Virus record (IMG/VR): IMGVR_UViG_3300012209_000002
Span: 1 to 61,018 of that record
Length of the DNA: 61,018 nt
Strand: one strand, 5' to 3'
From: a virus
Taxonomy: Duplodnaviria > Caudoviricetes
A program made the translations under genes and the position numbers. Shown here one piece after another: positions 2,878-52,474 of the stretch. Position 1 is the first letter of the stretch, and every line of letters begins with the position of its first letter. The notes below the pieces were generated by a model, which saw nothing but the letters and a program-made list of their open reading frames with translations, was not told the DNA's origin and did no database searches.

Positions 2878-5202
2878 CTATTGAGCGGCGGCCTGCTTCG
2901 GTTCCGGTTGCTGCGATTTTGCCTCTTGTGCCACCCGCGCGGTTAGTGCCGTTGCTGCGGCGGTCCATGCTGGCGTGCGTACGGGCAGTGTCATAGCTTG
3001 AGTCAACAGTTTTGCTCCACCGGGGCTGAATAAGATCCGCGATCCCAACCAAGGCAAGCCGACGGCCCCGGTTATCTCCAATGCCGCTTGTCCCAATGCC
3101 GCTTGCTTAAACCCTCCGGTAATTGCCGTCACCAAAGCGTGCGCAACCGTTCCGTAAGCGCCTAATGCGTACCAACTGGAAGAAGTACCCGAAGGATTCA
3201 TAATCCGGCTGACCCGCTTGGATGCCAGCATGAACTTATCCAAATCCCCGGTGAGCTGCTTGCCGAACAACAGCTCCTTGGTTTCCGGCCCCAGTCTGTT
3301 CCAGTCGGCCGCAATCCCGGCGCTCCGTCCGAATCCGCCTTCTTTCGTGGATTTATCGATCAGCCCTTCCAGAAACGTGCGTCCGGTGGTTTTCAGTTCG
3401 TTTGGAGCGATCTTTCGCAACTCCCGCAAGGTATTCAACGAACGGTCGCCGCCTTGCACCAAGTTGTAGTAAAATTTCGCGGGCTCCTCGCTCATATCCT
3501 GAAACAGCTCATCCACGTTATGATAGGCACGCACCAATCGTCGGCCGGCTTGCAATTTGCCGAGAACGTCCGATCCCGCCCCCTGCACCGCTCGTTGGAA
3601 TTCGGTTTCTCCTTGCGCGATCGTCATCTTGGCGAGACGCTGCGATTGTGTGGAAAGATAAGGGCTGTCGCCATCGCGCGCCAGTGCTTTCACCGCGCTC
3701 AAGGTCCGGTCGAAATCCATGGCATTCATGAATTTCTTGTCCGAAGTCATCAATTCTTCGAGACTGCGCCATGCTGGGGAATTGGCCCGCCGCGCATCCG
3801 GCAAAGCCCGCTTCAGATCGTCGTAAACCGGCGCTAATCCTTGACGAATGGGCGCGAGATCGACGGGAGTTTCCAGAACGCTGTAAACGGGCACCTGGCG
3901 CGGCATTCCAGCGGGTGTCAGCGTGGCCAACGGGTTCGCTCCGGGCACCGTTTTCGTTCCGGTCTGCACGGTTTGTCGGTTAACCGCTGTCGATTGCCGC
4001 ACCTCGTTGTAGAGTCGATCGGCTTTCCCTTTTAACTGCGCGGTCAGACGAATTCGTCGCTGAATCAACGCCTGTCCCGCGCCGTAAGGATCGGTGACTT
4101 GTCCTCCTGCCCGCGCCGCCAGTTGCTTTTCTTTGCCGGCTAACGCTTCTTCGGTCGCCATACGGGCCTTACTGGCGCGGATGCCCGAGCCCGGCAGACT
4201 TTCCATAGTCTGCTCCACCCGCTTCAATCCGGGATGGCCCGTCCGCTGTCCAATGCTCAATGGCACGTCTTTCTCGATGGACTGAACGGCGGCTTCTTCC
4301 ACCGGGTTATAGACATTGCGCACGGCCGGTTCCAAACGGATTCCTTTGGGCAGCAATTTGGCCGCAGACGGCGCCAGCAATTCGAGCGTATGGGCCGCGC
4401 CCGCACCGTAGCGTCCTGCGCGAAAGTCTTCTCCGGCCTGTACCGCACCTGGACCGGCTATCGGCAAATACGATGCAGCGCGATATCCCAAACCGGCAAT
4501 CCCCGGCTCTTTCTTAGACTTCTCGTACATTTCCCGCTGCTGCCCGTACATCGCACGGCCGGCTTGAATCGGATTCTTCGCTGCCTCTCCGATCGCAGCC
4601 GGCAGATTGGAAATGTCCCCCCAGAGCGTACCCCAAAATCCTTTTGGCTGCATCGCTGTGTTTTGCAAGCCCAATTGCACGGCATTGGCTTTTTCCTTAA
4701 GGGGCAATGCTTTAAATGCCGGATCGTAGGCATCCAGCACCTTGATCTTTTCGATTCCAGGCAATTGCCGGAAGTTCGGGTCGGCGAAGATCTTACTCAA
4801 CTCGTCGGCCCCGCTTGACTGTTCGCCAGTTCTTTGCGTTTGATCCACGATTAGTTTGCCCGATTTGTCTACCAGCCGGTCGCCTTCCCAATGCGGCGCT
4901 TCCTCGGTCGCATACCGGGATTCTTTGGAAAAGTATCTGTGATACGGCGTTTTGTAGGTATCGGGGAAGTGTGCGCTGCCACCGCTCTTAACTCGCGTCT
5001 CCCGTTCCGCCATAGCTTTTGTGTCCCGAAAGAATCCGCGCATGTCGTAGTTAGAGGTCGGCGATTCGGTCCATGGGATCTTATTACTCTGCACCCAGAT
5101 TTGGAATTTCTTCTCTTCATCCGGCGGTAGTTTGGTGAGGTACGGTCCGGGTTTGGCAAAAGGAGACGGCGAAGTAAGTTGCTCGCTCAGTTCGTCAGCC
5201 AC
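2878..5202 (-). CDS. Putative virion ejection/internal (DNA transfer) protein
   Basis: 774 aa, A/G/Q-rich helical protein at the distal end of the virion operon, as in podoviruses. Confidence 0.55.
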   Translation of the reverse strand: MADELSEQLTSPSPFAKPGPYLTKLPPDEEKKFQIWVQSNKIPWTESPTSNYDMRGFFRDTKAMAERETRVKSGGSAHFPDTYKTPYHRYFSKESRYATEEAPHWEGDRLVDKSGKLIVDQTQRTGEQSSGADELSKIFADPNFRQLPGIEKIKVLDAYDPAFKALPLKEKANAVQLGLQNTAMQPKGFWGTLWGDISNLPAAIGEAAKNPIQAGRAMYGQQREMYEKSKKEPGIAGLGYRAASYLPIAGPGAVQAGEDFRAGRYGAGAAHTLELLAPSAAKLLPKGIRLEPAVRNVYNPVEEAAVQSIEKDVPLSIGQRTGHPGLKRVEQTMESLPGSGIRASKARMATEEALAGKEKQLAARAGGQVTDPYGAGQALIQRRIRLTAQLKGKADRLYNEVRQSTAVNRQTVQTGTKTVPGANPLATLTPAGMPRQVPVYSVLETPVDLAPIRQGLAPVYDDLKRALPDARRANSPAWRSLEELMTSDKKFMNAMDFDRTLSAVKALARDGDSPYLSTQSQRLAKMTIAQGETEFQRAVQGAGSDVLGKLQAGRRLVRAYHNVDELFQDMSEEPAKFYYNLVQGGDRSLNTLRELRKIAPNELKTTGRTFLEGLIDKSTKEGGFGRSAGIAADWNRLGPETKELLFGKQLTGDLDKFMLASKRVSRIMNPSGTSSSWYALGAYGTVAHALVTAITGGFKQAALGQAALEITGAVGLPWLGSRILFSPGGAKLLTQAMTLPVRTPAWTAAATALTARVAQEAKSQQPEPKQAAAQ

Positions 5203-13045: not shown

Positions 13046-16000
13046 TCAAATTCGCGCCCCGCGCTCGAAGTGCAGGTCGCCGTGGACGCGCACGATCTGG
13101 CACCCTTCGCTTGTGCCCCACTCCTTGACCGCCATAGCACAATCTTTTTGGAAGACTCGAAAGGGTTTACAGGCCAACAGCGTGTACTGAGACAACTTCG
13201 CTTTCATCGGCTGGAGCACTTCATAAGGCTTCCTGATTTCACCGCCCGTGGACGGAATGAGATAGGTGTACACGCGTCCGTCGTCCTGTGTCACGATCAG
13301 CTTCACGTCGGAGTAAGACTGCAAGGTCACGAAGCAATCCCGGTGCGAGTGATAGCCCCGAAATCCGTGCGAGGTCGTCTGCGTGATCCAGTATTTGGCA
13401 AGGTCCGGGTGCGGCTCCCAGATCCACTTGATGCGCCATGGGCCGATATAGCGCAGAGGGCCATCCGGGATTATGCGCACCTGATGCGCTACGAAGGGAA
13501 CCGGGAAAGAGTAGGCAAGCTGGAGATTGCCGGCGTGGTTGACTTTTGTGAAAACCCCGCCAACCTGTCCGCCGTCGTATTGCACGGTAAGAGTGCGGTC
13601 TTGCCCGAGAGTATCAGCCCATAGCACAAATCCTTGGAAGAATTTAGCCGCTTGCACTCCATCGTCGGTCCACTCCGAATACAAGGCGGCGAGGTCCGGA
13701 CGCGCATCGCCAATCCAACGCACTTTCCAATCGGCGTGCTGGCGCCACGGAGGATTGGGGAATCCTGGCTGATCGAGTGGAACCAGTTTGACTTCGGTAG
13801 AAGTGAATGCCTCGGCAAAGGAATACGCCTTTTGAACTCTACCGTTATGATTGCAGGTTAGCCGCCGAACCTCAATCCCCTCCGAAATCACCTGCACCGC
13901 AACATCTTGCCCGCCCGTGTCCGCCTCGATGGCCACGCCGCGATAGGCGATGGGGTCGGTGGGCGAGTAGTCGGGAACGAAAGAGGTTAACTCCGGTTGC
14001 AGGGTCCAGAACCACTTCACCGAGTAGAGCTGCCATGCCGATTCGTCGCGCGGGCTGATGCGCATGTGGTGCGTGATCAGGGGGTCCACAAAGTAATAGG
14101 GTTTGGTCTGCTGCCCGTCGTGCTGAATGCTCAGAGTGGCGATGAGCAAATCGCCGTCGCCCAGGATTTCCACCGTGCGCGGTACATTGTACGTGTCGGC
14201 TTCGATCAGACACCCGTACAGATATTTGTTCTGCGCGGTGCCTTCGTCCTCCCAGTCGGTTGCCCGCTTCACCGTGATCTCGGGTTTGGGCACCCAAGAG
14301 GGCTCCCATTCATAAAACAGCGAGGGCAATCCCCCGGAGACATTTTCCGTCCACGCGAAATCGAGCGCGAAGCTGGACGCGGGCCGGCCCAAACCGTCGG
14401 TCAGATCGAGCACCTGCTGTTTGCGTCCCGATCCGGCGCCGCTGCCAATGCCGTTAATGAGAATCGAGCCGATCGCGGCATCCATCTCCGGGGAGAAGCG
14501 CGGCGTCACCCCGATATCCACGCGCGGATCGAGATCGAGGTACGCGTCTCCCCAGATCTTCTGTGCACGCGGATCGCCCGCGTCGAACGCCGCCGTGACC
14601 AACCGGCAGGAGATGGGATTGCCGGCATCGCCCACCGTATATTTGTTGTAGTTGTAGACGATATTGCCCTGGGAGAACTTCAGATTGGATGCGGCGACTT
14701 CGTAGGCACGGCCCAGAGGGCGATTGCTGACGCCGTTGTACACATCGAACGCGATCCAACCGTTAGGCTCCTGCCGGCCTTCGTACACCAGGGTCGAATA
14801 ATGGCCCGTCGTTGCTGCCGGGTAGTCGTAAAACAGCACGCCTTCAAACCAGCACAAGTTGTGATATTGCGTGAAATTGGAGTAAGGACCTTGTTCGGTT
14901 CCGGTAATCGGCGGTCCGCAAACCGTGTCCTCGCCGGTCAGCCACGGATACAGCAGGCTCAACACCACGGGATTCTGGTTGTCATGGCTGAAAAACGGGT
15001 AGAGCGTGGCGTCGGTGAGCGACCGTAGACCGGCCCCCGAATAGTCGTAGATGCCGTCCTTGCTTCTCCAGGTCATGGACTGGTCCGAGATGCCGTTGGA
15101 GTGGACCGAGTGCGCGTAAGGCATCGCGAGGCCCTTGCCGCCGGGGATCTCTTCCACCAGGAATTGCCCCGCGACCGCCAGGCTCGGATACACGCGAAAC
15201 ATACGCTCCGTGCTCCACAGATACGGCGTGCCGTCGTAAATCGCCCCGCCCATTAGCGGCTCCGAAGGCGCGGTCACGATCACCGAATTGGCGGTGTCGG
15301 CGGAATCTGGATCGTTGCCGTTGGTCCAGTAGAGTGTGCCCGCGGTCAGATCGTTGCCGAGCCCGAAAATGTACGATCCACTCTGCCCGGTGCCGTAAAG
15401 CCCGAAGATGCAGCGCATGGGGGCACCCGCGGTCAACACGCCTAACCCGGTATCCCAATCGACAATATCCCCGCTGGCCATCCCCACGTTCGCCAAATTC
15501 TCGGTCAACTCGATGACCGCTCCCGCTCGCCCCGCTTGTCGCACCTGGTAAAGCGTGGTGTACGCCGTGGGATGCACCTTGAAAAACGAGCCCGGTGTCC
15601 AGCCGACATTGAACTCGTCGCCCGATTGCCAGACAATAATCCACACCCCGTTGGGAAGCTGTTCGATGATGCCGGTGCCCTTGCGCGGAATGTCGAGCAC
15701 GGGAAAAGGCTGAAATAAGTTGAACCGCGAGATGCCCGTGTCTGGATCGGTTACGGCGGGCGGTCCCGGCGCCGACAAGAGCGCGGAATCCGGCGTGGTA
15801 TCGACCATATTGCTGCCGGCCGGGGCGCTGCCCACGAATACCCAGCGCGGCAGCACGTCCGAGAAGCGATACACGTCCACCACGATATTGGTGTCCGGCA
15901 AGCCGGTCTGCGGATCGATGGGCGCGGGGGGCAGGTCAATGGAAGCGCTGGCATTATTGATGAAAATTGCAGGCGTGGCCCAGGTCGTGCGCGTGGCCGG

Positions 16001-16627
16001 CGAAGGATTCGAGCGTGCCCCGGTGTAGTACCGGCGATAGGCGAATCGCCATTGATAATTGCCGTTCAGCAGGCCGGGATCGCTACCGATCGCCGGCACG
16101 GTCAAGGAGGGTGGCGCAGGCAGCCCCATCGTAAACGCATGGGCCATTTGCGTGTCCGGATCGTCGAACGGGTAGTAGCCCACTGTCAGCAGAGTTTCGT
16201 GGTCGCCGATGTACTTCCAGCCCGGCGAACCCGAACGCGGCGCCGCGTCCACCATCGTCAGGGGTTTCCCCGAGAGCAAACCAGTCGTGGCACCGAACAG
16301 CGGCAGTTTGAGCGGGTTGAGCGCTGTGTTTTGCAAGTGCGCCTCGTCCACACCCATGTAGATCGAATCGTCCGCGCCTACCAAGTACGTGTGGGTGAGG
16401 TTGAGAGCTGGCGAAAAATTATTCAATCTTGAAATTGAATGAACCCAGGTCTTGCCGGGAATGGTGGCGAAGTGCTCCAAGCCGGATCGCGCGCCGACTA
16501 CGCCCTGCCGGGGACTGCGAATGTTGCGGCCGAACAAGATTTGGCCGTCGGGCAGGGTGTCCAGCGAGCGGTTGAAATTCATCCCGCCATTCGCAAAATT
16601 CATACGTTTGCGTGAGAAGGCAGCCAC
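13046..16627 (-). CDS. Large tail/head-closure (nozzle, tail tubular B-like) protein
   Basis: 1193 aa, beta-rich; N-terminal FANGGMN..D.LP...GRNI start typical of nozzle/stabilisation proteins; follows an adaptor-like gene. Confidence 0.6.
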   Translation of the reverse strand: MAAFSRKRMNFANGGMNFNRSLDTLPDGQILFGRNIRSPRQGVVGARSGLEHFATIPGKTWVHSISRLNNFSPALNLTHTYLVGADDSIYMGVDEAHLQNTALNPLKLPLFGATTGLLSGKPLTMVDAAPRSGSPGWKYIGDHETLLTVGYYPFDDPDTQMAHAFTMGLPAPPSLTVPAIGSDPGLLNGNYQWRFAYRRYYTGARSNPSPATRTTWATPAIFINNASASIDLPPAPIDPQTGLPDTNIVVDVYRFSDVLPRWVFVGSAPAGSNMVDTTPDSALLSAPGPPAVTDPDTGISRFNLFQPFPVLDIPRKGTGIIEQLPNGVWIIVWQSGDEFNVGWTPGSFFKVHPTAYTTLYQVRQAGRAGAVIELTENLANVGMASGDIVDWDTGLGVLTAGAPMRCIFGLYGTGQSGSYIFGLGNDLTAGTLYWTNGNDPDSADTANSVIVTAPSEPLMGGAIYDGTPYLWSTERMFRVYPSLAVAGQFLVEEIPGGKGLAMPYAHSVHSNGISDQSMTWRSKDGIYDYSGAGLRSLTDATLYPFFSHDNQNPVVLSLLYPWLTGEDTVCGPPITGTEQGPYSNFTQYHNLCWFEGVLFYDYPAATTGHYSTLVYEGRQEPNGWIAFDVYNGVSNRPLGRAYEVAASNLKFSQGNIVYNYNKYTVGDAGNPISCRLVTAAFDAGDPRAQKIWGDAYLDLDPRVDIGVTPRFSPEMDAAIGSILINGIGSGAGSGRKQQVLDLTDGLGRPASSFALDFAWTENVSGGLPSLFYEWEPSWVPKPEITVKRATDWEDEGTAQNKYLYGCLIEADTYNVPRTVEILGDGDLLIATLSIQHDGQQTKPYYFVDPLITHHMRISPRDESAWQLYSVKWFWTLQPELTSFVPDYSPTDPIAYRGVAIEADTGGQDVAVQVISEGIEVRRLTCNHNGRVQKAYSFAEAFTSTEVKLVPLDQPGFPNPPWRQHADWKVRWIGDARPDLAALYSEWTDDGVQAAKFFQGFVLWADTLGQDRTLTVQYDGGQVGGVFTKVNHAGNLQLAYSFPVPFVAHQVRIIPDGPLRYIGPWRIKWIWEPHPDLAKYWITQTTSHGFRGYHSHRDCFVTLQSYSDVKLIVTQDDGRVYTYLIPSTGGEIRKPYEVLQPMKAKLSQYTLLACKPFRVFQKDCAMAVKEWGTSEGCQIVRVHGDLHFERGARI

Positions 16628-16652
16628 TTATAACTCCTGGACGGGCGTCGCG

Positions 16653-16668
16653 AGTTTCACGTGAAACA
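16653..16668. promoter_or_regulatory. parS centromere-like site
   Basis: AGTTTCACGTGAAACA is 15/16 identical to the chromosomal parS palindrome TGTTTCACGTGAAACA; intergenic. Confidence 0.75.
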
Positions 16669-16671
16669 CTA

Positions 16672-16700
16672 TTGCGCACCACCTCTGAGTCTGATATAGT
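16672..16700 (+). promoter_or_regulatory. Sigma70-type promoter of the RAMP/Cas7-like gene
   Basis: TTGCGC (16672-77), 17 nt spacer, TATAGT (16695-700); followed by a 5' UTR hairpin and a GGAGGT RBS. Confidence 0.75.
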
Positions 16701-16768
16701 GCGGTGGTCCCCGTGCGGTTCAAGACACACGAGGACCAGCATCCTAGCCTTCTGGGAGGTAGGCCAAG

Positions 16769-17401
16769 ATGCCCAAAACAAAAGGTATCACAATACCACT
16801 GACCATTCTGGCTCCGGTTTCTAACGATGCCCAAGGCATCATCTCTTATGAACATCCGTACACTATTTCGGTAACGATTACCGGAGTTGCACCATTTCTG
16901 TTTCATCGCTGGAACATTGAAGTGGTGGAAGAAAAGAACAAAGCTGCCAGAGGAAGCCGAGCCCGCAAGGAAAACGATCTGGAAAGTTTCGTTCATCGCG
17001 ACGTAAAAGGGAATTTGGCAATACCTACCGAGTATTTGCGTCAAGCAATTATCGGCGCTGCCCGATACAAATCAGATCCACGAAGCCCCAAGAAAACCAT
17101 GATGGATCTAGTCAAGGCCGGAATCGTGGCCGCCGAAGAGTTTTGTAACTTTGGCGTTAAGGATTGGGACTACGTGGACCGGCGAAGAGTTTTGATCCAA
17201 AGAAACGCGATTACCAGGAGCAGGCCGGCAATGCACATCGGTTGGACGGTGACTGCTCTTTTCACCGTGATTACCGCTGAATACATTAGCCCAACCATGT
17301 TCAACGAGTTGATTCAGACAGCCGGAAAACTGATCGGCATCGGAAATTTCAGGCCAAGTTTCGGAAGATTTCAGGTTACGGTTTTCAAACTGTTAACCTA
17401 A
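16769..17401 (+). CDS. Standalone RAMP/Cas7-like protein (Vipr-like)
   Basis: 210 aa; N-terminal strand VTITGVAPFLFH, LAIPTEYLRQAI helix, and C-terminal G-rich loop AGKLIGIGNFRPSFGRFQV; no other cas genes adjacent; inverted relative to the surrounding operon. Confidence 0.8.
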   Translation: MPKTKGITIPLTILAPVSNDAQGIISYEHPYTISVTITGVAPFLFHRWNIEVVEEKNKAARGSRARKENDLESFVHRDVKGNLAIPTEYLRQAIIGAARYKSDPRSPKKTMMDLVKAGIVAAEEFCNFGVKDWDYVDRRRVLIQRNAITRSRPAMHIGWTVTALFTVITAEYISPTMFNELIQTAGKLIGIGNFRPSFGRFQVTVFKLLT

Positions 17402-17408
17402 CAAATGT

Positions 17409-17545
17409 GGCTCGCTATGGCTGCACAAGCTAAGGCTTGTCCATACTCGTCGCGACACTGCGGGGCAATGGCAGTGGCATGGTTTGGCCGCACACGGCAC
17501 GCTTCGGCAAAGGCAGTGACATGGTGTAGCGTGGCACGTCATGGA
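17409..17545 (+). ncRNA. 5-nt periodic GGY-NN tandem array (VIPR-like guide RNA), three units
   Basis: ggc TC gct AT ggc TG cac AA gct AA ggc TT gtc CA tac TC gtc GC gac AC tgc GG ggc | aatggcagt | ggc AT ggt TT ggc CG cac AC ggc AC gct TC ggc | aaaggcagt | gac AT ggt GT agc GT ggc AC gtc AT gga. Confidence 0.8.
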
Positions 17546-17583
17546 AACCCGGAAGCGTTCGATTGTCGGACGCTTTCCGGGTT
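17546..17583. terminator. Strong hairpin closing the array, between convergent transcription units
   Basis: AACCCGGAAGCGTTCGA-TTG-TCGGACGCTTTCCGGGTT. Confidence 0.7.
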
Positions 17584-17586
17584 CAA

Positions 17587-18900
17587 TTACATTCTGACCG
17601 CTTCTGCTGATTGAAGCCGAGCAGGTTTTTCCAAGGATGGCCGGAAGAAAGCTAAATTGCGAAGTCTTGAGTTTTGTTCAGCGGCGGCGGTCATGAAATT
17701 TGCGCGAAGTCTTGCCGTTGCCGCAAATTCAGATCCGCCCATTCTGAATGATGCAATGTGTTGGGCATAATCCAGTAGTGGATCTATTGCGTCTTTTGTA
17801 ATTTGTAGATAGTCCGAGTCATTTGCTGGCATTATTGCATTTCTTGTTACGTCCATGGTCACCGTGTACGTGCCATCAGCCACCGGCCCCATCGCTACCA
17901 GGTTGCGCCCCGCCATGCCCGCGAAGGACGGCGTGCCCGTAGTCGCTTCCCACGAGGTGCTGAAGGCGTCCAGTTCGAACACGGAACCGCTCCAGACCGG
18001 CGCACTTGCCACTTGAGTCATGAGCACGGTGGGGTTCATGCGAGCCGCCTGCACCGCCTCTGCATACCGGGATTCGGCGTACTGCGCGCGCGGAATGTCC
18101 TTCCCCGGCCCGTCGAGCGCCAACAGGTCGGCGAGCGCGCCCCAGGTCACCGCCCACGCAAAATCGTCGGGGATGCCCAAGATCGCAGAAGTATTATAAA
18201 CTGTGGCCGGGGAACCCCCAACTGTAACCACGGGCGCCACCGCAATCAGTTCCACAGTGCCCGTGGCTAACGGGGGCGGATACATCTCGATGGCGACCGG
18301 GGCCAGATCGAACTGCGCATAGACTACGGGCGTGGTAACCGGAGCAGCGTTGAAGCGAAAACTCTGCGCACCGTACTCGTCGTCACGCCACAAAACCGAT
18401 GCTCCACCGGTTAACCACGCCACGCGCCGGATATCCGTAATCGAGTCCGCCAGCGCGGTGCGGCCCGCCCCTACGCCGGCCTGGGTGATGCGCGTTAAGC
18501 AGACGCCCGAATCGCCCTGAAATCGATTTAAACGCGCCTGGATAGCCCCGGCGATGGCAGCAAAGGTGAACTGCCCGGTGCCGGTCCAGATGGCGGACAG
18601 GGCGGGTTCGAGTAAATGGGCGAGGACGGCGTCCACCGCGTCGCGGTCGGTAACCGTGTACGCAAGCAAAGAGGAAAGGACTGTAGGTAAGTCGTAAAAT
18701 GCCTGGTTGGCGACAGTATTAAACGTGCCACGGTCTTTATAGGACGCTGTGAGCGCCTGCCACGTCCGAAGACTTTCCTGAATCCAGCGATTGGCATTGG
18801 CCGGGGAACCGCCATCGCCAAAATAAACCGCGTTGGGATCTTCCAAACGCTCTAGAAGTTGAGCACGTGCAGAGGCGAGCGTGGTGGTCGAGTACGGCAT
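17587..18900 (-). CDS. Putative head-tail adaptor (tail tubular A-like) protein
   Basis: 437 aa; TTLASARAQLLERLED..ANRWIQESLR..YDLP and IEMYPPP..IPDDFAWAV motifs of adaptor families. Confidence 0.6.
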   Translation of the reverse strand: MPYSTTTLASARAQLLERLEDPNAVYFGDGGSPANANRWIQESLRTWQALTASYKDRGTFNTVANQAFYDLPTVLSSLLAYTVTDRDAVDAVLAHLLEPALSAIWTGTGQFTFAAIAGAIQARLNRFQGDSGVCLTRITQAGVGAGRTALADSITDIRRVAWLTGGASVLWRDDEYGAQSFRFNAAPVTTPVVYAQFDLAPVAIEMYPPPLATGTVELIAVAPVVTVGGSPATVYNTSAILGIPDDFAWAVTWGALADLLALDGPGKDIPRAQYAESRYAEAVQAARMNPTVLMTQVASAPVWSGSVFELDAFSTSWEATTGTPSFAGMAGRNLVAMGPVADGTYTVTMDVTRNAIMPANDSDYLQITKDAIDPLLDYAQHIASFRMGGSEFAATARLRANFMTAAAEQNSRLRNLAFFRPSLEKPARLQSAEAVRM

Positions 18901-37092: not shown

Positions 37093-39324
37093 CTATCGGG
37101 GTTCGACGATTTTTGGAGTAGCCCCGCTGAATTCCTGCGCTCCGTAACGCCAAGTTGCGTATTGTTTGATCCGCGCGGGTTTATTGACCGGCGAACGGCC
37201 AGAATAGGCGGCGATCTTGGCGGAACGGTAATTTTCAGCATCGAATTTGAGGAGGGATACCAAAATGAAGCCCAGCGCAAGCACCCTGTCATCGTGTCCG
37301 CCGTAAGCCGCCCGCAAACTTTGCACAGCCTCTTGCCCCTCAAGCGACGCCATTTCCTGGACAAACCAAGGGGAACAAATCTCGACCTCCGCATCCCGCA
37401 GCATTTTCACAAGAAGCGAGATCATGCCGTCTCGGAACCATCCCGCCGCTGTATAGATTCCGATCTTATTGTACTTGCTAAGATTCGGTATTCTTGCATC
37501 CAACTGTTTATCGACCCAGGGATGGAAGTTGCTCCACCCGCACATTCTGATGATGTTCTGCGGTAGATCCCCCTGGCCCTTGCACTCGATGGCCATTCTG
37601 GGTTGTTGGATTTGCCCTCGATCGTCGGGGACGGAGTACAGCGTACCCAGTGCCAGCAGGAAGGGCCAGCTATCGAGCGCGCTGCACTTGCCCGACGCAT
37701 ATTCGGCGATTTGCTTGTTCGGCCCGTCGATCGAGTACTTCCTCAATCCCTCGATGACGGTGCGGTCCTTGTCGATGCCGTCGGCGGTGTCCATGCCGAA
37801 GCCGTAGGTTTCGCCCTCCACGGGCATTTCGTAGATGTAGATTTTGTCGAGCCCGTCGTCCAAGGCCACCGGACGCAGCGGGACGAGATCGAACTGGATG
37901 GGGTAGCCGGTGGAGTTGGCGGCGTTGACGGTAAGCGCGGGCTTGTTGGGATCGCGGGCGAGGCGGTCCGGTTGGAGGCGGGGATTGACGATTTCAGGGG
38001 GACCGACTAAGCCATAGATGCCCACGGTATTTTGGGCCGCAGCGTTATCGCGGTAGTAGGTGATGGTTTCCGTGCTGAATACTGAGATGTTCGTACTTTG
38101 GAAGGCTTCGTCATCGGTGCAGGGCATCTCCTGGAGAAAGCGATTCAGCCGGTTTTCGTTGATGGCCTCTTCGCGTTCGCACTCGTAGTACCAGATTTGC
38201 CAGAGAGACATTTCCCAGTTCGAGCCCAGGCGCTTTTGCAAATAGTCGGTCTTTTCCACGTAGCTTTTGGCCATGCGGGCGTGAGTCTCGGCCCATGGCG
38301 CCATGCCGGTCGAGTAATCGGCGGGGATCGGGTGCGCCGTTTTCCATCCGGGATCGGGGTAGAGCTCGCCCACAAACCAGGGAAGAAACAGAGGACGCAA
38401 ACGCGAGCGACCGGCCCTCCATCCGTCTTTGGAGCTTACCCACTTTTTGTTCCACCAGTTGTTCATGCCCTTGGCCGTGCCTTCGAGCGCGAGAAAGTTG
38501 GTGGGCGCATTGTGCATGGCTTTGAGAAGAGAGGAGTCGATCAGATCTGAGACTCGGCCTTCATCGAATTCGGCCAGCTCCGAGATATGGGCTTTGGTAG
38601 GAGAAGTGCCGCGAGCGATGCCGGTCGCCTGTTGTCCATGCTGCAAGGTCACGGCGGAATCATTGCCGAATTCCAGAAATTTGTTCTCGCGGCGATGAGT
38701 TTCTTCGGGGCGCATCCAATAAGGCAGCCGCTCCAGAGAGAAATCGTAAAGATCCCAAAGCAGATTGGTTTTGTCTTCGGTGCAGGAGGCAACGAAAGAA
38801 TTGATATGCGGCTGAAACACGATTTCGTGCAGGATGATGAGGGAGATTTCACGGGAGAGGCCGAGTTGGCGGGCCTTCAGCAAAATCAGAAGAATGGCAA
38901 TGTTCAATTCTTGCGACTCGGCGCAGATGTCCAGGAAGATTTTCTGGCTATCCCACGGCGACATACGAACCACGCGATCGTCGGGATTCTTAATATAGCA
39001 ATAACGGGTCTGCCAGTAGTCGAAATCGAAGCGGCACATCGCGCGCTCATTGCGAATCCATTGCGCCTCCTCGGCGGTAAGCGTCTTTTTCCAATGCTTG
39101 GTGAAATCGCGCCGGGAAATCCAGTCCTGGCGATCCCCGTTCTTTCCGTAGATCGTGAAAATCGTCAGACCCGGTATGCGGGTGCCGTCCCAGGGCTCGA
39201 TCAATCCCTGCAAGTGCCGCTGCATCGAGTCGCACTGGACAATGGAATGAGGCTCGGGGATGAAAGAGCCCGCCAGAGTGGCAAAGGACTCCAGGGATTG
39301 AGAGATTATTTTTGGGCTGAACAT
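37093..39324 (-). CDS. terL: Terminase large subunit
   Basis: Walker A LKARQLGLS, Walker B AHISE, coupling motif EGT, nuclease motifs FGMDTADG and GHDDRVLA. Confidence 0.9.
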   Translation of the reverse strand: MFSPKIISQSLESFATLAGSFIPEPHSIVQCDSMQRHLQGLIEPWDGTRIPGLTIFTIYGKNGDRQDWISRRDFTKHWKKTLTAEEAQWIRNERAMCRFDFDYWQTRYCYIKNPDDRVVRMSPWDSQKIFLDICAESQELNIAILLILLKARQLGLSREISLIILHEIVFQPHINSFVASCTEDKTNLLWDLYDFSLERLPYWMRPEETHRRENKFLEFGNDSAVTLQHGQQATGIARGTSPTKAHISELAEFDEGRVSDLIDSSLLKAMHNAPTNFLALEGTAKGMNNWWNKKWVSSKDGWRAGRSRLRPLFLPWFVGELYPDPGWKTAHPIPADYSTGMAPWAETHARMAKSYVEKTDYLQKRLGSNWEMSLWQIWYYECEREEAINENRLNRFLQEMPCTDDEAFQSTNISVFSTETITYYRDNAAAQNTVGIYGLVGPPEIVNPRLQPDRLARDPNKPALTVNAANSTGYPIQFDLVPLRPVALDDGLDKIYIYEMPVEGETYGFGMDTADGIDKDRTVIEGLRKYSIDGPNKQIAEYASGKCSALDSWPFLLALGTLYSVPDDRGQIQQPRMAIECKGQGDLPQNIIRMCGWSNFHPWVDKQLDARIPNLSKYNKIGIYTAAGWFRDGMISLLVKMLRDAEVEICSPWFVQEMASLEGQEAVQSLRAAYGGHDDRVLALGFILVSLLKFDAENYRSAKIAAYSGRSPVNKPARIKQYATWRYGAQEFSGATPKIVEPR

Positions 39325-39602
39325 GATGCTGGCGCGATTCCGTAAGGCAGCGTCAGGTTCGTCCAGCCGAACCTGGTAACACTCAAGCTGGAGCCGTGCC
39401 CGTAAGCGCCGATAATGAGCATAACGCCATCGTTGACCTCTTCCATCCATCCGCTCATTGCGGCGATACGAGGCTCCAGACGCAATTTCGGAATCGAGAT
39501 CGACTTGCGCCCCGGCTCCCACAGCAAACGCTCGGGGTCCAGAATAGCGCCAGCCAACAGTGACAAGAACGCGCGACGATCCATCTCAGATAGTATAGAC
39601 AA
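39306..39602 (-). CDS. Hypothetical protein
   Basis: MDRRAFLSLLAGA twin-arginine-like start. Confidence 0.5.
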   Translation of the reverse strand: MSILSEMDRRAFLSLLAGAILDPERLLWEPGRKSISIPKLRLEPRIAAMSGWMEEVNDGVMLIIGAYGHGSSLSVTRFGWTNLTLPYGIAPASCSAQK

Positions 39603-50760: not shown

Positions 50761-50930
50761 GTGAGACCCTGAAATCCATAGCCGCCGCCATCGCCGTTGG
50801 ATTGGTAGCGAATGCCGACTATTTCAACAGCCATAGCGAAGACCAACTCGTACAATGCGCGCTCCGCTTAGCCGTTGCCGTAAACGACGAAGCGGACGCG
50901 TGCGGGTTGGGCGAATTGGGCGAAAAATGA
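50757..50930 (+). CDS. Small hypothetical protein
   Basis: ATGA-coupled on both sides. Confidence 0.5.
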   Translation: MSETLKSIAAAIAVGLVANADYFNSHSEDQLVQCALRLAVAVNDEADACGLGELGEK

Positions 50931-52474
50931 CCGCCGCCAAAATCCTCACTCCCGCCTCCCTCGGCTTGCCCCCGCACTTCTCCGCGTTTCGCCCGCACCA
51001 GCTCTCCGCGATCGACTATGTTCTCGCTTCCTCCAAGCGCTTTCAGGGACTCTCGCTCCCGACCGGCAGCGGCAAGACACTGATCGCCATGGCCGTCGCC
51101 CGCGCGCTCGGCGTCAAAACCGTCTATCTCACCTACACCAAGGCCCTGCAGCGGCAAATCGTGGATGAGTTCGGCTGCATCGGGGCGGTGTCGGTCGAAG
51201 GCCGCGCCAATTACTCTTGCCGAACGCTGCTCGCCGGCTCTTGCGAAGAAGGCGCCCAAGCCAATTGCCCCCTACTTGCCTCCAGCCCCGAGTGCCCGTA
51301 CCGCGCCGCCGTTCTCGCCGCCCAGCGCTCCCGTCTCATTGTCGCCAACTATGCCTATTGGTTGCGCGTGCGAGCCGATCGGAGCGATGCGCTGGAGTCG
51401 GGGGAAAAGGTGGGCCGCTTAATCTGCGACGAAGCTGGGGAGGCCCCCAAGGCCCTCTGCGGGCATCTTTCGCTGGAGTTTGCCATGGATCGCTCCGGCT
51501 CGGGCTCTGGACACATGCCCAATCCGGTCTGGTTCGAGTGGGGGAACCGGGAAGCGTTGCGCACGATCCGGGAACGGGCGAACGTGGCGCAAGGTACCCC
51601 CCAGTACTACCGGCTGACCCGCACGCTCGAAGACCTGGCCCAGATCCCGGCAATGGACTCGAACTGGATCTGGGAGCAGGACCGACACGCGGTGCGTTTC
51701 GACGCCATTTGGCCCGCATCCTACGCCGAGTCCCTATGGTCGAACGTGCCTCGCGTGCTCATCCTCTCCGCGGCCTTGCGCCCGTACACCCTCCAACTCC
51801 TGGGACTGGAGCCTGCTTCCTACGATTTTCGCGAGTGGCCCGCCGTCTTCGCCCCGCACCTCGGCCCGGTTTACTACCACCCGCCGTCTCCGCCCGTTCG
51901 CATGACCGCCAAAACCAAGCCCGCCGACCGCGAGCGCGTCTGGAGCCTCATGGACGACTGGCTGGAAGCCCGCCGCGACCGTAAAGCTTTGATTCAAACG
52001 AATTCCTACGACAGAATGCGCGAGCTGGCCGCGTATTCCCGCCATGCCGGCCGCATGATCTTCAACGACTGCGCCGGCGAGAGCGGTCCCGCCGCCGAGT
52101 ATTTTCGCTCGGCCTCTCCCGGTACGATCCTGGTCTCCCCCTCGTTCGGCACCGGATGGGATTTCCCCGGCAGCCAATGCGAGCTGATCCTCATTCCCAA
52201 AATTCCTTACGCCTCGAAATCGTCCGCCGTGGAAGCCGAGCGTCTGCGCTCTTCCGAATACCTGCAAAACGCCGCCGTCCAAACGCTTGTGCAGCAGGCC
52301 GGCCGCGCCCGCCGTCACGAGCGAGACCGGTCGGAGACGGTGATCTTCGACTCGATGCTGAAGTGGGCCATGGGCAGCCCCAGAGAGCCGTGGCGGGGGC
52401 ACGCGCCTCGTTGGTTCCGGGTGCATGAGATCGCGGAGATTCCCCCCGCGCCGCCCAGACTGGAGACCGTGTGA
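50927..52474 (+). CDS. DinG/Rad3-like SF2 helicase
   Basis: Q motif FRPHQ, PTGSGKT, four-Cys putative Fe-S region, DEAG, SAAL, GWDFPG, QQAGRARRHERD. Confidence 0.88.
   Translation: MTAAKILTPASLGLPPHFSAFRPHQLSAIDYVLASSKRFQGLSLPTGSGKTLIAMAVARALGVKTVYLTYTKALQRQIVDEFGCIGAVSVEGRANYSCRTLLAGSCEEGAQANCPLLASSPECPYRAAVLAAQRSRLIVANYAYWLRVRADRSDALESGEKVGRLICDEAGEAPKALCGHLSLEFAMDRSGSGSGHMPNPVWFEWGNREALRTIRERANVAQGTPQYYRLTRTLEDLAQIPAMDSNWIWEQDRHAVRFDAIWPASYAESLWSNVPRVLILSAALRPYTLQLLGLEPASYDFREWPAVFAPHLGPVYYHPPSPPVRMTAKTKPADRERVWSLMDDWLEARRDRKALIQTNSYDRMRELAAYSRHAGRMIFNDCAGESGPAAEYFRSASPGTILVSPSFGTGWDFPGSQCELILIPKIPYASKSSAVEAERLRSSEYLQNAAVQTLVQQAGRARRHERDRSETVIFDSMLKWAMGSPREPWRGHAPRWFRVHEIAEIPPAPPRLETV

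Follow-up and report, generated by a model that had tools for sequence, protein, structure and literature searches.

A VIPR cassette of a soil phage and the probably coincidental gapped match between its array and its own upstream region

In a 61,018-base stretch of phage DNA, which was analyzed as a whole and is referred to here as the window, a small gene is followed by a degenerate pentamer array, and one unit of this array spells a gapped match to the region located immediately upstream of the gene itself. The locus therefore raises the question of whether the array guides the gene product to its own promoter, as proposed in the first-pass annotation under the term RNA-guided negative autoregulation, or whether the match is a coincidence. 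The reading that we prefer, with a probability of about 0.6, is that positions 16669-17590 constitute a minimal VIPR cassette of a soil phage, composed of Vipr, a single-domain Cas7-like RAMP, and a downstream vrRNA array of GGY/NN pentamers, and that the match of its unit 2 is coincidental.

VIPR (Viral Interference Programmable Repeat) systems were described in preprints from 2026, the members being mostly those of enterobacterial and Pseudomonas phages. Seven types have been defined, with type II present in Escherichia phage SUSP1 (bioRxiv 10.64898/2026.04.26.720920). According to the same preprint, the small Vipr RAMP protein binds vrRNAs that consist of 9-16 YNNGG repeats, and reading of double-stranded DNA by the NN pairs skips one nucleotide, works on either strand and requires no PAM; binding silences transcription, and the natural targets are competing phages and satellites. 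Applied to the present locus, the array would be transcribed and loaded onto Vipr; following the published mechanism, Vipr protomers would assemble into a polymer along the GGY triplets and expose the NN pairs, these pairs would read the double-stranded DNA while skipping every third base, and transcription would be silenced by the complex once bound.

A VIPR cassette in a soil phage

The contig is that of a phage, as seen from its genes for a terminase large subunit (37093-39522) and a helicase (50855-52474) and from the SU10 adaptor domain encoded beside the cassette. The features of the cassette are listed in Table 1.

Table 1. Features of the cassette and its neighbours in the window (positions are those of the 61,018-base stretch).
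Feature	Position	Strand	Basis
Divergent neighbour, 1193-aa ORF, tail-gene block	13046-16627	-	ORF list
Gapped 11/12 match to six unit 2 dinucleotides	16669-16685	+	sequence scan
Putative cassette promoter: TTGCGC (16672-16677), 17-nt spacer, TG (16692-16693), TATAGT (16695-16700)	16672-16700	+	read from sequence
Ribosome-binding site GGGAGG, 9 nt before ATG	16754-16759	+	read from sequence
vipr gene, 210-aa Cas7-like RAMP protein (P0001), C-terminal G-loop GIGNFRPSFGRF	16769-17401	+	homology and fold
Array tract 1, 13 pentamers in one register (TGTGG CTCGC TATGG ... CGGGG CAATG)	17406-17470	+	register parse
Unit 2, first copy of a 42-nt tandem duplication	17464-17505	+	repeat search
Unit 3, second copy of the duplication	17506-17547	+	repeat search
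Strong hairpin at the array end, 25-nt arms (putative terminator and/or vrRNA 3' tail)	17538-17590	+	repeat search and fold
Convergent neighbour, 437-aa protein, SU10 adaptor domain, tail module	17587-18900	-	PF24175, E 1.7e-12

The product of the vipr gene matches phrog_4652 (E 6e-18), a family of unnamed function, and Pfam, NCBIfam and PHROGs yielded no functional name for it. Its AF2 model (pLDDT 72) matched Csm3 and type VII Cas7 in Foldseek with E values of about 1e-4, and VIA-align placed it on the Cas7 family with Z 11.2 and an rmsd of 3.8 over 150 aligned residues, the alignment spanning residues 28-210; the thumb region (139-151) is modelled with low confidence. All 30 aligned sequences share the G-loop motif GxG(D/N)FRPxxGRF. 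When the family profile (A1) was searched against phage SUSP1, exactly one ORF was found, the vipr gene (E 7.1e-14), and this ORF is accompanied by one GGTNN array upstream and three downstream, matching the published description. By this direct homology to SUSP1 Vipr, the P0001 cassette is a member of the VIPR systems.

The family is large, with at least 680 homologues of P0001 in a word-indexed protein search, 379 loci in IMG/VR and more than 562 in metagenomes. No close relatives were found in single-protein scans of IMG/VR and JGI metagenomes, and the genome collection search returned only the window's own record; the nearest relatives show 61% identity at the level of the loci and 70% for protein P0002. 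Nine soil-metagenome runs contain the whole stretch or part of it, with no RNA run listed, and the four that were compared hold identical fragments (0 differences), across which no signal of natural promoter/guide covariation is seen.

In the contig, the cassette sits antisense between two minus-strand tail genes, the divergent one encoding a 1193-aa ORF without a Pfam or PHROG family. It forms a low-GC island (0.48-0.53 at 16600-17900, compared with 0.60-0.65 in the flanks), and the low GC content extends into the last ~200 nt of the 437-aa gene (17587-17800).

In the related loci, GGYNN tracts directly downstream of the gene were identified by the strict parse in 66 of 81 cases, with up to 84 units in one register. 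Single-register arrays of 60-84 units with no visible tails can be observed in L078 (3618-4038), L018 (3118-3615), L043 and L056. The pentamer arrays of L003 (2830-2975) and L013 (2835-2960) are located upstream of vipr and not downstream. The arrays of L010, L022, L026, L030, L032, L046, L054, L062, L065 and L067 contain, within 100-300 nt after the stop codon, small embedded tetraloop hairpins that follow the pattern GGTTCGGG-stem-GAAA/TTCG-stem-CCGGT; their stems vary yet stay complementary (GCC/GGC, ACTC/GAGT, CTTC/GAAG), and these hairpins may represent processing or tail elements. Within +-2 kb of vipr, the 81 loci share no conserved accessory gene: the largest neighbour cluster covers six of them and no shared cluster includes the window. 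One of the neighbour clusters consists of spurious antisense ORFs inside arrays. Since the published loci are described as having a vap gene just 'typically', its absence here is compatible with VIPR membership. The soil-phage clade appears to be without an accessory gene, and often to carry very long single-register arrays.

The array of the window is composed of the first tract shown in Table 1, a 7-pentamer tract (17478-17512) and a shorter third tract from 17520, which together provide 11 in-register six-repeat windows. The first tract is a strongly degenerate YNNGG repeat, the Y being kept in 13/13 pentamers and the GG in just 4/13, and the strict GGY parse found no tract in the window. 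The YNNGG score over 12 pentamers is 26/36, the maximum of the contig (background maximum 25), whereas most relatives' arrays score 31-36 on the same measure; the window array is the most degenerate among the array-bearing relatives. Published VIPR arrays may also show 'internal degeneracy' and relaxed consensus forms (bioRxiv 10.64898/2026.04.26.720920). The G-loop of the window has Asn (GIGNFRP) at a position where relatives have near-invariantly Asp; this Asn was considered as a cause of the degenerate GG and was rejected, as L078 has the same Asn yet a perfect 84-unit array. Tandem Repeats Finder found nothing in 16500-17800, and Rfam gave sub-threshold noise only.

The two copies of the duplication share 75% identity over 36 nt (17464-17499 versus 17506-17541, repeat search), which suggests growth of the array by local duplication and subsequent divergence of the NN pairs. 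The hairpin at the array end (-27 kcal/mol and z -4.4 for the fold of 17536-17596) abuts the stop codon of the convergent 437-aa gene. A 69-aa ATG-initiated ORF (17405-17614) extends across the array and the terminal hairpin into the end of the convergent gene, and is probably an artefact of the repeat composition. Searches for external targets of the window tracts gave a best match of 19/26 for T1 (in a search space of 0.6 Mb), with T2 reaching 12/14 at most; the controls with wrong skips did at least as well, and tract 1 used as an exact 26-base gapped pattern had 0 matches in IMG/VR.

The gapped match and its chance level

The intergenic region upstream of vipr comprises 141 nt. Read from the sequence, the -10 element TATAGT with its preceding TG is a credible one and appears stronger than the proposed -35 element TTGCGC, which agrees with TTGACA at three of six positions; the cassette promoter is absent from the listing of the consensus promoter scan.

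The match is present as described in the first-pass annotation. Starting at 17476, unit 2 reads GGC-AT GGT-TT GGC-CG CAC-AC GGC-AC GCT-TC GGC, with its NN pairs at 17479-17505; in pentamer notation, the in-phase repeats at 17478-17507 are CATGG TTTGG CCGCA CACGG CACGC TTCGG and carry AT TT CG AC AC TC. These are the six in-phase dinucleotides, out of eight in the 42-nt copy, that were used for the match. When one target base is skipped between the pairs, 11 of the 12 bases agree with the sequence at 16669-16685 (read from the contig as CTATTGCGCACCACCTC), the plus-strand alignment being CT a TT g CG c AC c AC c TC. The single mismatch is found at the 5' end of the guide. For unit 2, neither strand of the 61,018-base contig contains another site of at least 11/12 with a 1-nt skip. 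Relative to TATAGT, the matched site occupies the positions 10-26 nt upstream, and it is 42 nt from the start of the divergent 1193-aa ORF. Following the VIPR rule, the partner of the vrRNA at this site would be the minus strand.

Beyond these six repeats the agreement fades. With one further repeat the score is 12/14 (seven repeats). A longer match to the four flanking dinucleotides, through the two 6-nt units before unit 2 or beyond its 3' end, was considered and rejected, as just 4/8 bases are added (hand count). The in-phase dinucleotides of unit 3 (AT GT GT AC AT) mismatch to the promoter site in a hand comparison, and no high-scoring site for the third tract was found in the promoter region by the gapped scan. 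In the scaffold of unit 2, two of the seven GGY triplets are degenerate (CAC and GCT).

How surprising such a match is depends on what is counted as a trial. The chance of about 2e-6 per site given in the first-pass annotation was reproduced by arithmetic (2.2e-6 with uniform bases). With the base composition of the contig, the value for a single guide is 1.35e-6 per site, corresponding to expectations of 0.16 per contig and 3.4e-4 per intergenic region, and all three values refer to one guide. For the 11 in-register six-repeat windows, the probability of any match of at least 11/12 in the shuffled 141-nt intergenic region is 0.0042 (20,000 shuffles), and leaving the skip length free (0-3) raises this figure about 4x. 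Over the whole contig the same 11 windows give four matches, two of which overlap at 16669-16685. Matches of 11/12 quality become common once the register is left unfixed: the 120 period-5 registers of the array give 89 matches of at least 11/12 in the 61 kb of the contig, a caution that 12 informative bases and a period-3 target produce frequent coincidences. The 12/14 score of the seven-repeat unit 2 is reached 5x at skip 1 in ~1.2 Mb, and 4, 1 and 2x at the other skips. With a 3-nt skip, unit 2 also agrees by chance at 11/12 bases with a site in the vipr gene itself (17237-17263), which illustrates the ease of 12-base gapped coincidences. Considering this window alone, the promoter match goes modestly beyond chance, and the window-level p of ~0.004 leaves the autoregulation idea alive but unproven.

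Self-matches and the one-nucleotide skip in related cassettes

Self-matches were surveyed in the homologous cassettes, and the expected counts were obtained by applying the same guides to the upstream regions of the other loci. In the strict survey (GGY parse, at least 6 NN, own 210-nt upstream region, threshold of at least 11/12), a self-upstream match was found in one of 51 non-redundant loci, where 0.40 were expected; this match (L014) is located at -198, away from any promoter. A relaxed parse (Y at least 5/6, GG at least 3/6) admits units as degenerate as those of the window. Among 66 loci it gave two matches at skip 1, those of the window and of L016, with 1.00 expected, and 0, 3 and 2 at skips 0, 2 and 3, including one of 12/12. 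The larger set of 105 loci, which remained from 161 loci (129 usable) after removal of identical upstream regions, gave again the window and L016 at skip 1, with 1.33 expected, and 1, 4 and 2 at skips 0, 2 and 3. The guide of L016 is a poor one, located 470 nt past the stop codon, and the upstream region of this locus is coding-like by eye; as with L014, the match is not promoter-located.

The match consequently does not recur among homologues, the 104 other cassettes giving one match where about 1.3 are expected. Because the self-match counts are near expectation, the family as a whole is not marked by self-promoter matching, and the proposed negative autoregulation through unit 2 finds no support in a survey where two of 105 cassettes match and the wrong skips yield as many or more. 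A rough Poisson estimate from these counts places the 95% upper bound for self-targeting cassettes at ~3%. It is important to mention that the power of the survey is limited, as the nearest loci are 61% identical, with upstream regions that are not alignable by eye, and the true promoters of the relatives are unmapped.

Wider searches gave a similar picture. In the 4-kb locus of SUSP1, skips 1 and 2 each gave one 11/12 self-match, both away from the promoter. Within +-3 kb of the relatives' cassettes, self-targeting was counted 63 times at 11/12 against 41.9 expected, 5 times at 14/16 against 7.1 expected and 0 times at 16/18 against 0.5 expected; the small excess at 11/12 may reflect shared base composition.

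The skip rule itself was analyzed with nine-repeat windows from 56 unique tracts, which were compared to 559,523 bases of array-masked loci plus the window. At 17/18 there were 10 matches at skip 1 versus 1, 1 and 0 at skips 0, 2 and 3, and at 16/18 there were 54 versus 8, 24 and 21. The top skip-1 matches represent one event, in which the first tract of L018 (array 3118-3420) matches the vipr genes of other phages (~3390-3440 of L044, L027, L058, L062 and L064). The tract reads the conserved segment I-N/T-R-T-R-P-A-M-K-A-G-W in frame, with the wobble base skipped. Over 16 repeats the guide scores 24/32 against the vipr gene of L044 and 20/32 against that of its own locus; with L044, the best 13 repeats give 24/26 (counted from the alignment). 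Judged from these alignments, the soil-phage clade seems to have an anti-VIPR guide in the first tract of L018. This agrees with the published guides aimed at rivals' VIPR loci (10.64898/2026.04.26.720920; 10.64898/2026.10.15.759431) and with the self-match scores lower than non-self scores in the phage-satellite competition study (10.64898/2026.10.15.759431).

The 1-nt-skip reading operates in the P0001 clade. The suggestion that the promoter match reveals a 2-match/1-skip code was accordingly right about the code, which equals the published VIPR rule and was found again in the clade; the single 11/12 match from which it was drawn is insufficient to establish it.

Alternative readings and comparison with known systems

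The match of unit 2 has the correct VIPR geometry, and is most likely a chance partial match without function. Coincidence is favoured by the failure to replicate among relatives, the equal yield of the wrong skip rules, the shortness of a match that does not extend, the degenerate scaffold and the self-avoidance of published systems, in which the guides of the P. fulva clade, type III and type V show no self-targeting at an NN match of 80% or more (bioRxiv 10.64898/2026.04.26.720920). The choice of the window acts in the same direction, as it was flagged for the match itself.

Genuine negative autoregulation is an alternative that we regard as possible though unlikely. The vrRNA of unit 2, carrying about six Vipr protomers, would bind the minus strand at 16669-16685 and occlude the -35 element and the spacer, thereby capping the levels of Vipr and vrRNA. 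The geometry equals the published 1-nt-skip rule, the site is the only one of its quality in the contig, the window-level P is 0.0042, two of the four contig-wide matches of the in-register guides fall at this one site, and a filament bound there, immediately before a good extended -10, would be a plausible obstacle to RNA polymerase. Published VIPR represses from promoter-proximal sites on either strand, and three of four promoter-proximal reprogrammed guides repressed GFP (bioRxiv 10.64898/2026.04.26.720920). The cryo-EM study, which describes the filament/triplex structure, is also consistent with a short guide whose mismatch lies at the 5' end, as protomers resolve in its series from the 3' end toward the 5' end and some of its DNA-bound intermediates contained as few as 5 subunits (10.64898/2026.04.26.720927). 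CreR and tracr-L are precedents for degenerate guides with partial promoter matches, and the 95% upper bound of the survey still allows ~3% of cassettes to target themselves.

Against autoregulation stand, besides the survey with its equal or higher wrong-rule controls and the self-avoidance of published systems, several properties of the locus. Six repeats match and the flanks do not, whereas the vrRNAs characterised to date comprise 9-16 repeats; the -35 element is weakly assigned; over its full length the array is the most degenerate of those compared (26/36); and a complex bound here would also form a roadblock 42 nt upstream of another gene, the divergent 1193-aa tail gene. Unit 2 contains the triplets CAC and GCT, and perturbation of GGY abolishes silencing in published work (bioRxiv 10.64898/2026.04.26.720920). 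Functional SUSP1 vrRNAs do hold degenerate units (one has 13/15 good triplets), so the 5/7 of unit 2 is low but not disqualifying. The string 'autoreg' is absent from 10.64898/2026.04.26.720920 and 10.64898/2026.10.15.759431, and the word 'self' is absent from the cryo-EM paper (10.64898/2026.04.26.720927).

The more specific proposal that a degenerate six-repeat vrRNA unit serves as a built-in governor of the VIPR cassette, binding the cassette's own promoter through the 11/12 gapped match, is in our opinion doubtful. If true, it would be the first case of VIPR self-regulation, a convergent counterpart of CreR and tracr-L, and it would mean that about six repeats suffice for silencing. A functional promoter match would thus point to short, partly degenerate guides for VIPR self-regulation and set a lower bound on functional guide length, which would be useful both for understanding how self-harm is limited by phages and for engineering. 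The match is in this respect a testable lead, albeit a probably coincidental one.

It is improbable that unit 2 is aimed at the homologous VIPR promoter of a close rival, its own match being a residue of shared ancestry and the mismatch aiding self-avoidance. Guides against rivals' VIPR loci have been published, and the guide of L018 reaches 24/32 on a rival vipr gene against 20/32 on its own. However, no related locus has a unit 2 match upstream of vipr, the best 12/14 matches being elsewhere; the nearest locus retrieved is just 61% identical; and a single mismatch at the 5' end seems a weak discriminator between self and non-self. That 17405-17614 is a small protein gene with no RNA array, and hence no guide, is highly improbable: an ATG-initiated ORF of 69 aa does span the region, but the conserved period is 5 and not 3, with Y in 13/13 consecutive pentamers, GGYNN arrays of up to 84 units occupy this position in relatives, repeats of this make-up inherently leave every frame open, and the ORF runs through the terminal hairpin into the convergent gene.

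The preferred reading, a minimal VIPR system with a coincidental promoter match, places the cassette beside three kinds of known systems. What is new is a VIPR member from a large clade of soil phages, with at least 680 proteins and 379 IMG/VR loci. With the VIPR system of SUSP1 the clade shares a RAMP protein of ~20 kDa with detectable homology, adjacent GGY/NN arrays, the phage-borne location and the 1-nt skip. It differs in having no conserved vap gene in 81 loci and in the 60-84 single-register repeats of some relatives, as opposed to the discrete 9-16-repeat vrRNAs of published VIPR; the window array, moreover, is short and degenerate, and no counterpart of the SUSP1 pseudoknot tail was recognised here.

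The second comparison is with the autoregulation of CRISPR systems by CreR, derived from degenerated mini-CRISPRs (bioRxiv 10.1101/2023.03.10.532045), and by the type II-A long tracrRNA, tracr-L (bioRxiv 10.1101/2020.05.21.102756). The likeness consists of a degenerate guide beside the effector gene and a short partial match to the effector's own promoter, and the proposal of the first-pass annotation resembles this model. In those systems, pairing is described as experimentally shown and widespread, whereas the present locus offers a single 11/12 match that is unconserved in 104 other cassettes.

The third comparison concerns the protein. P0001 shares with Csm3, Cmr4 and type VII Cas7 the RRM-based RAMP fold and the C-terminal glycine-rich loop, and it differs from the Cas7 family in standing alone, as neither further cas genes nor a CRISPR array accompany it. 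The periodicity of the guide also distinguishes the two: in VIPR the period is 5 nt with three bases sequestered, and in Cas7 it is 6 nt with one base flipped (bioRxiv 10.64898/2026.04.26.720920).
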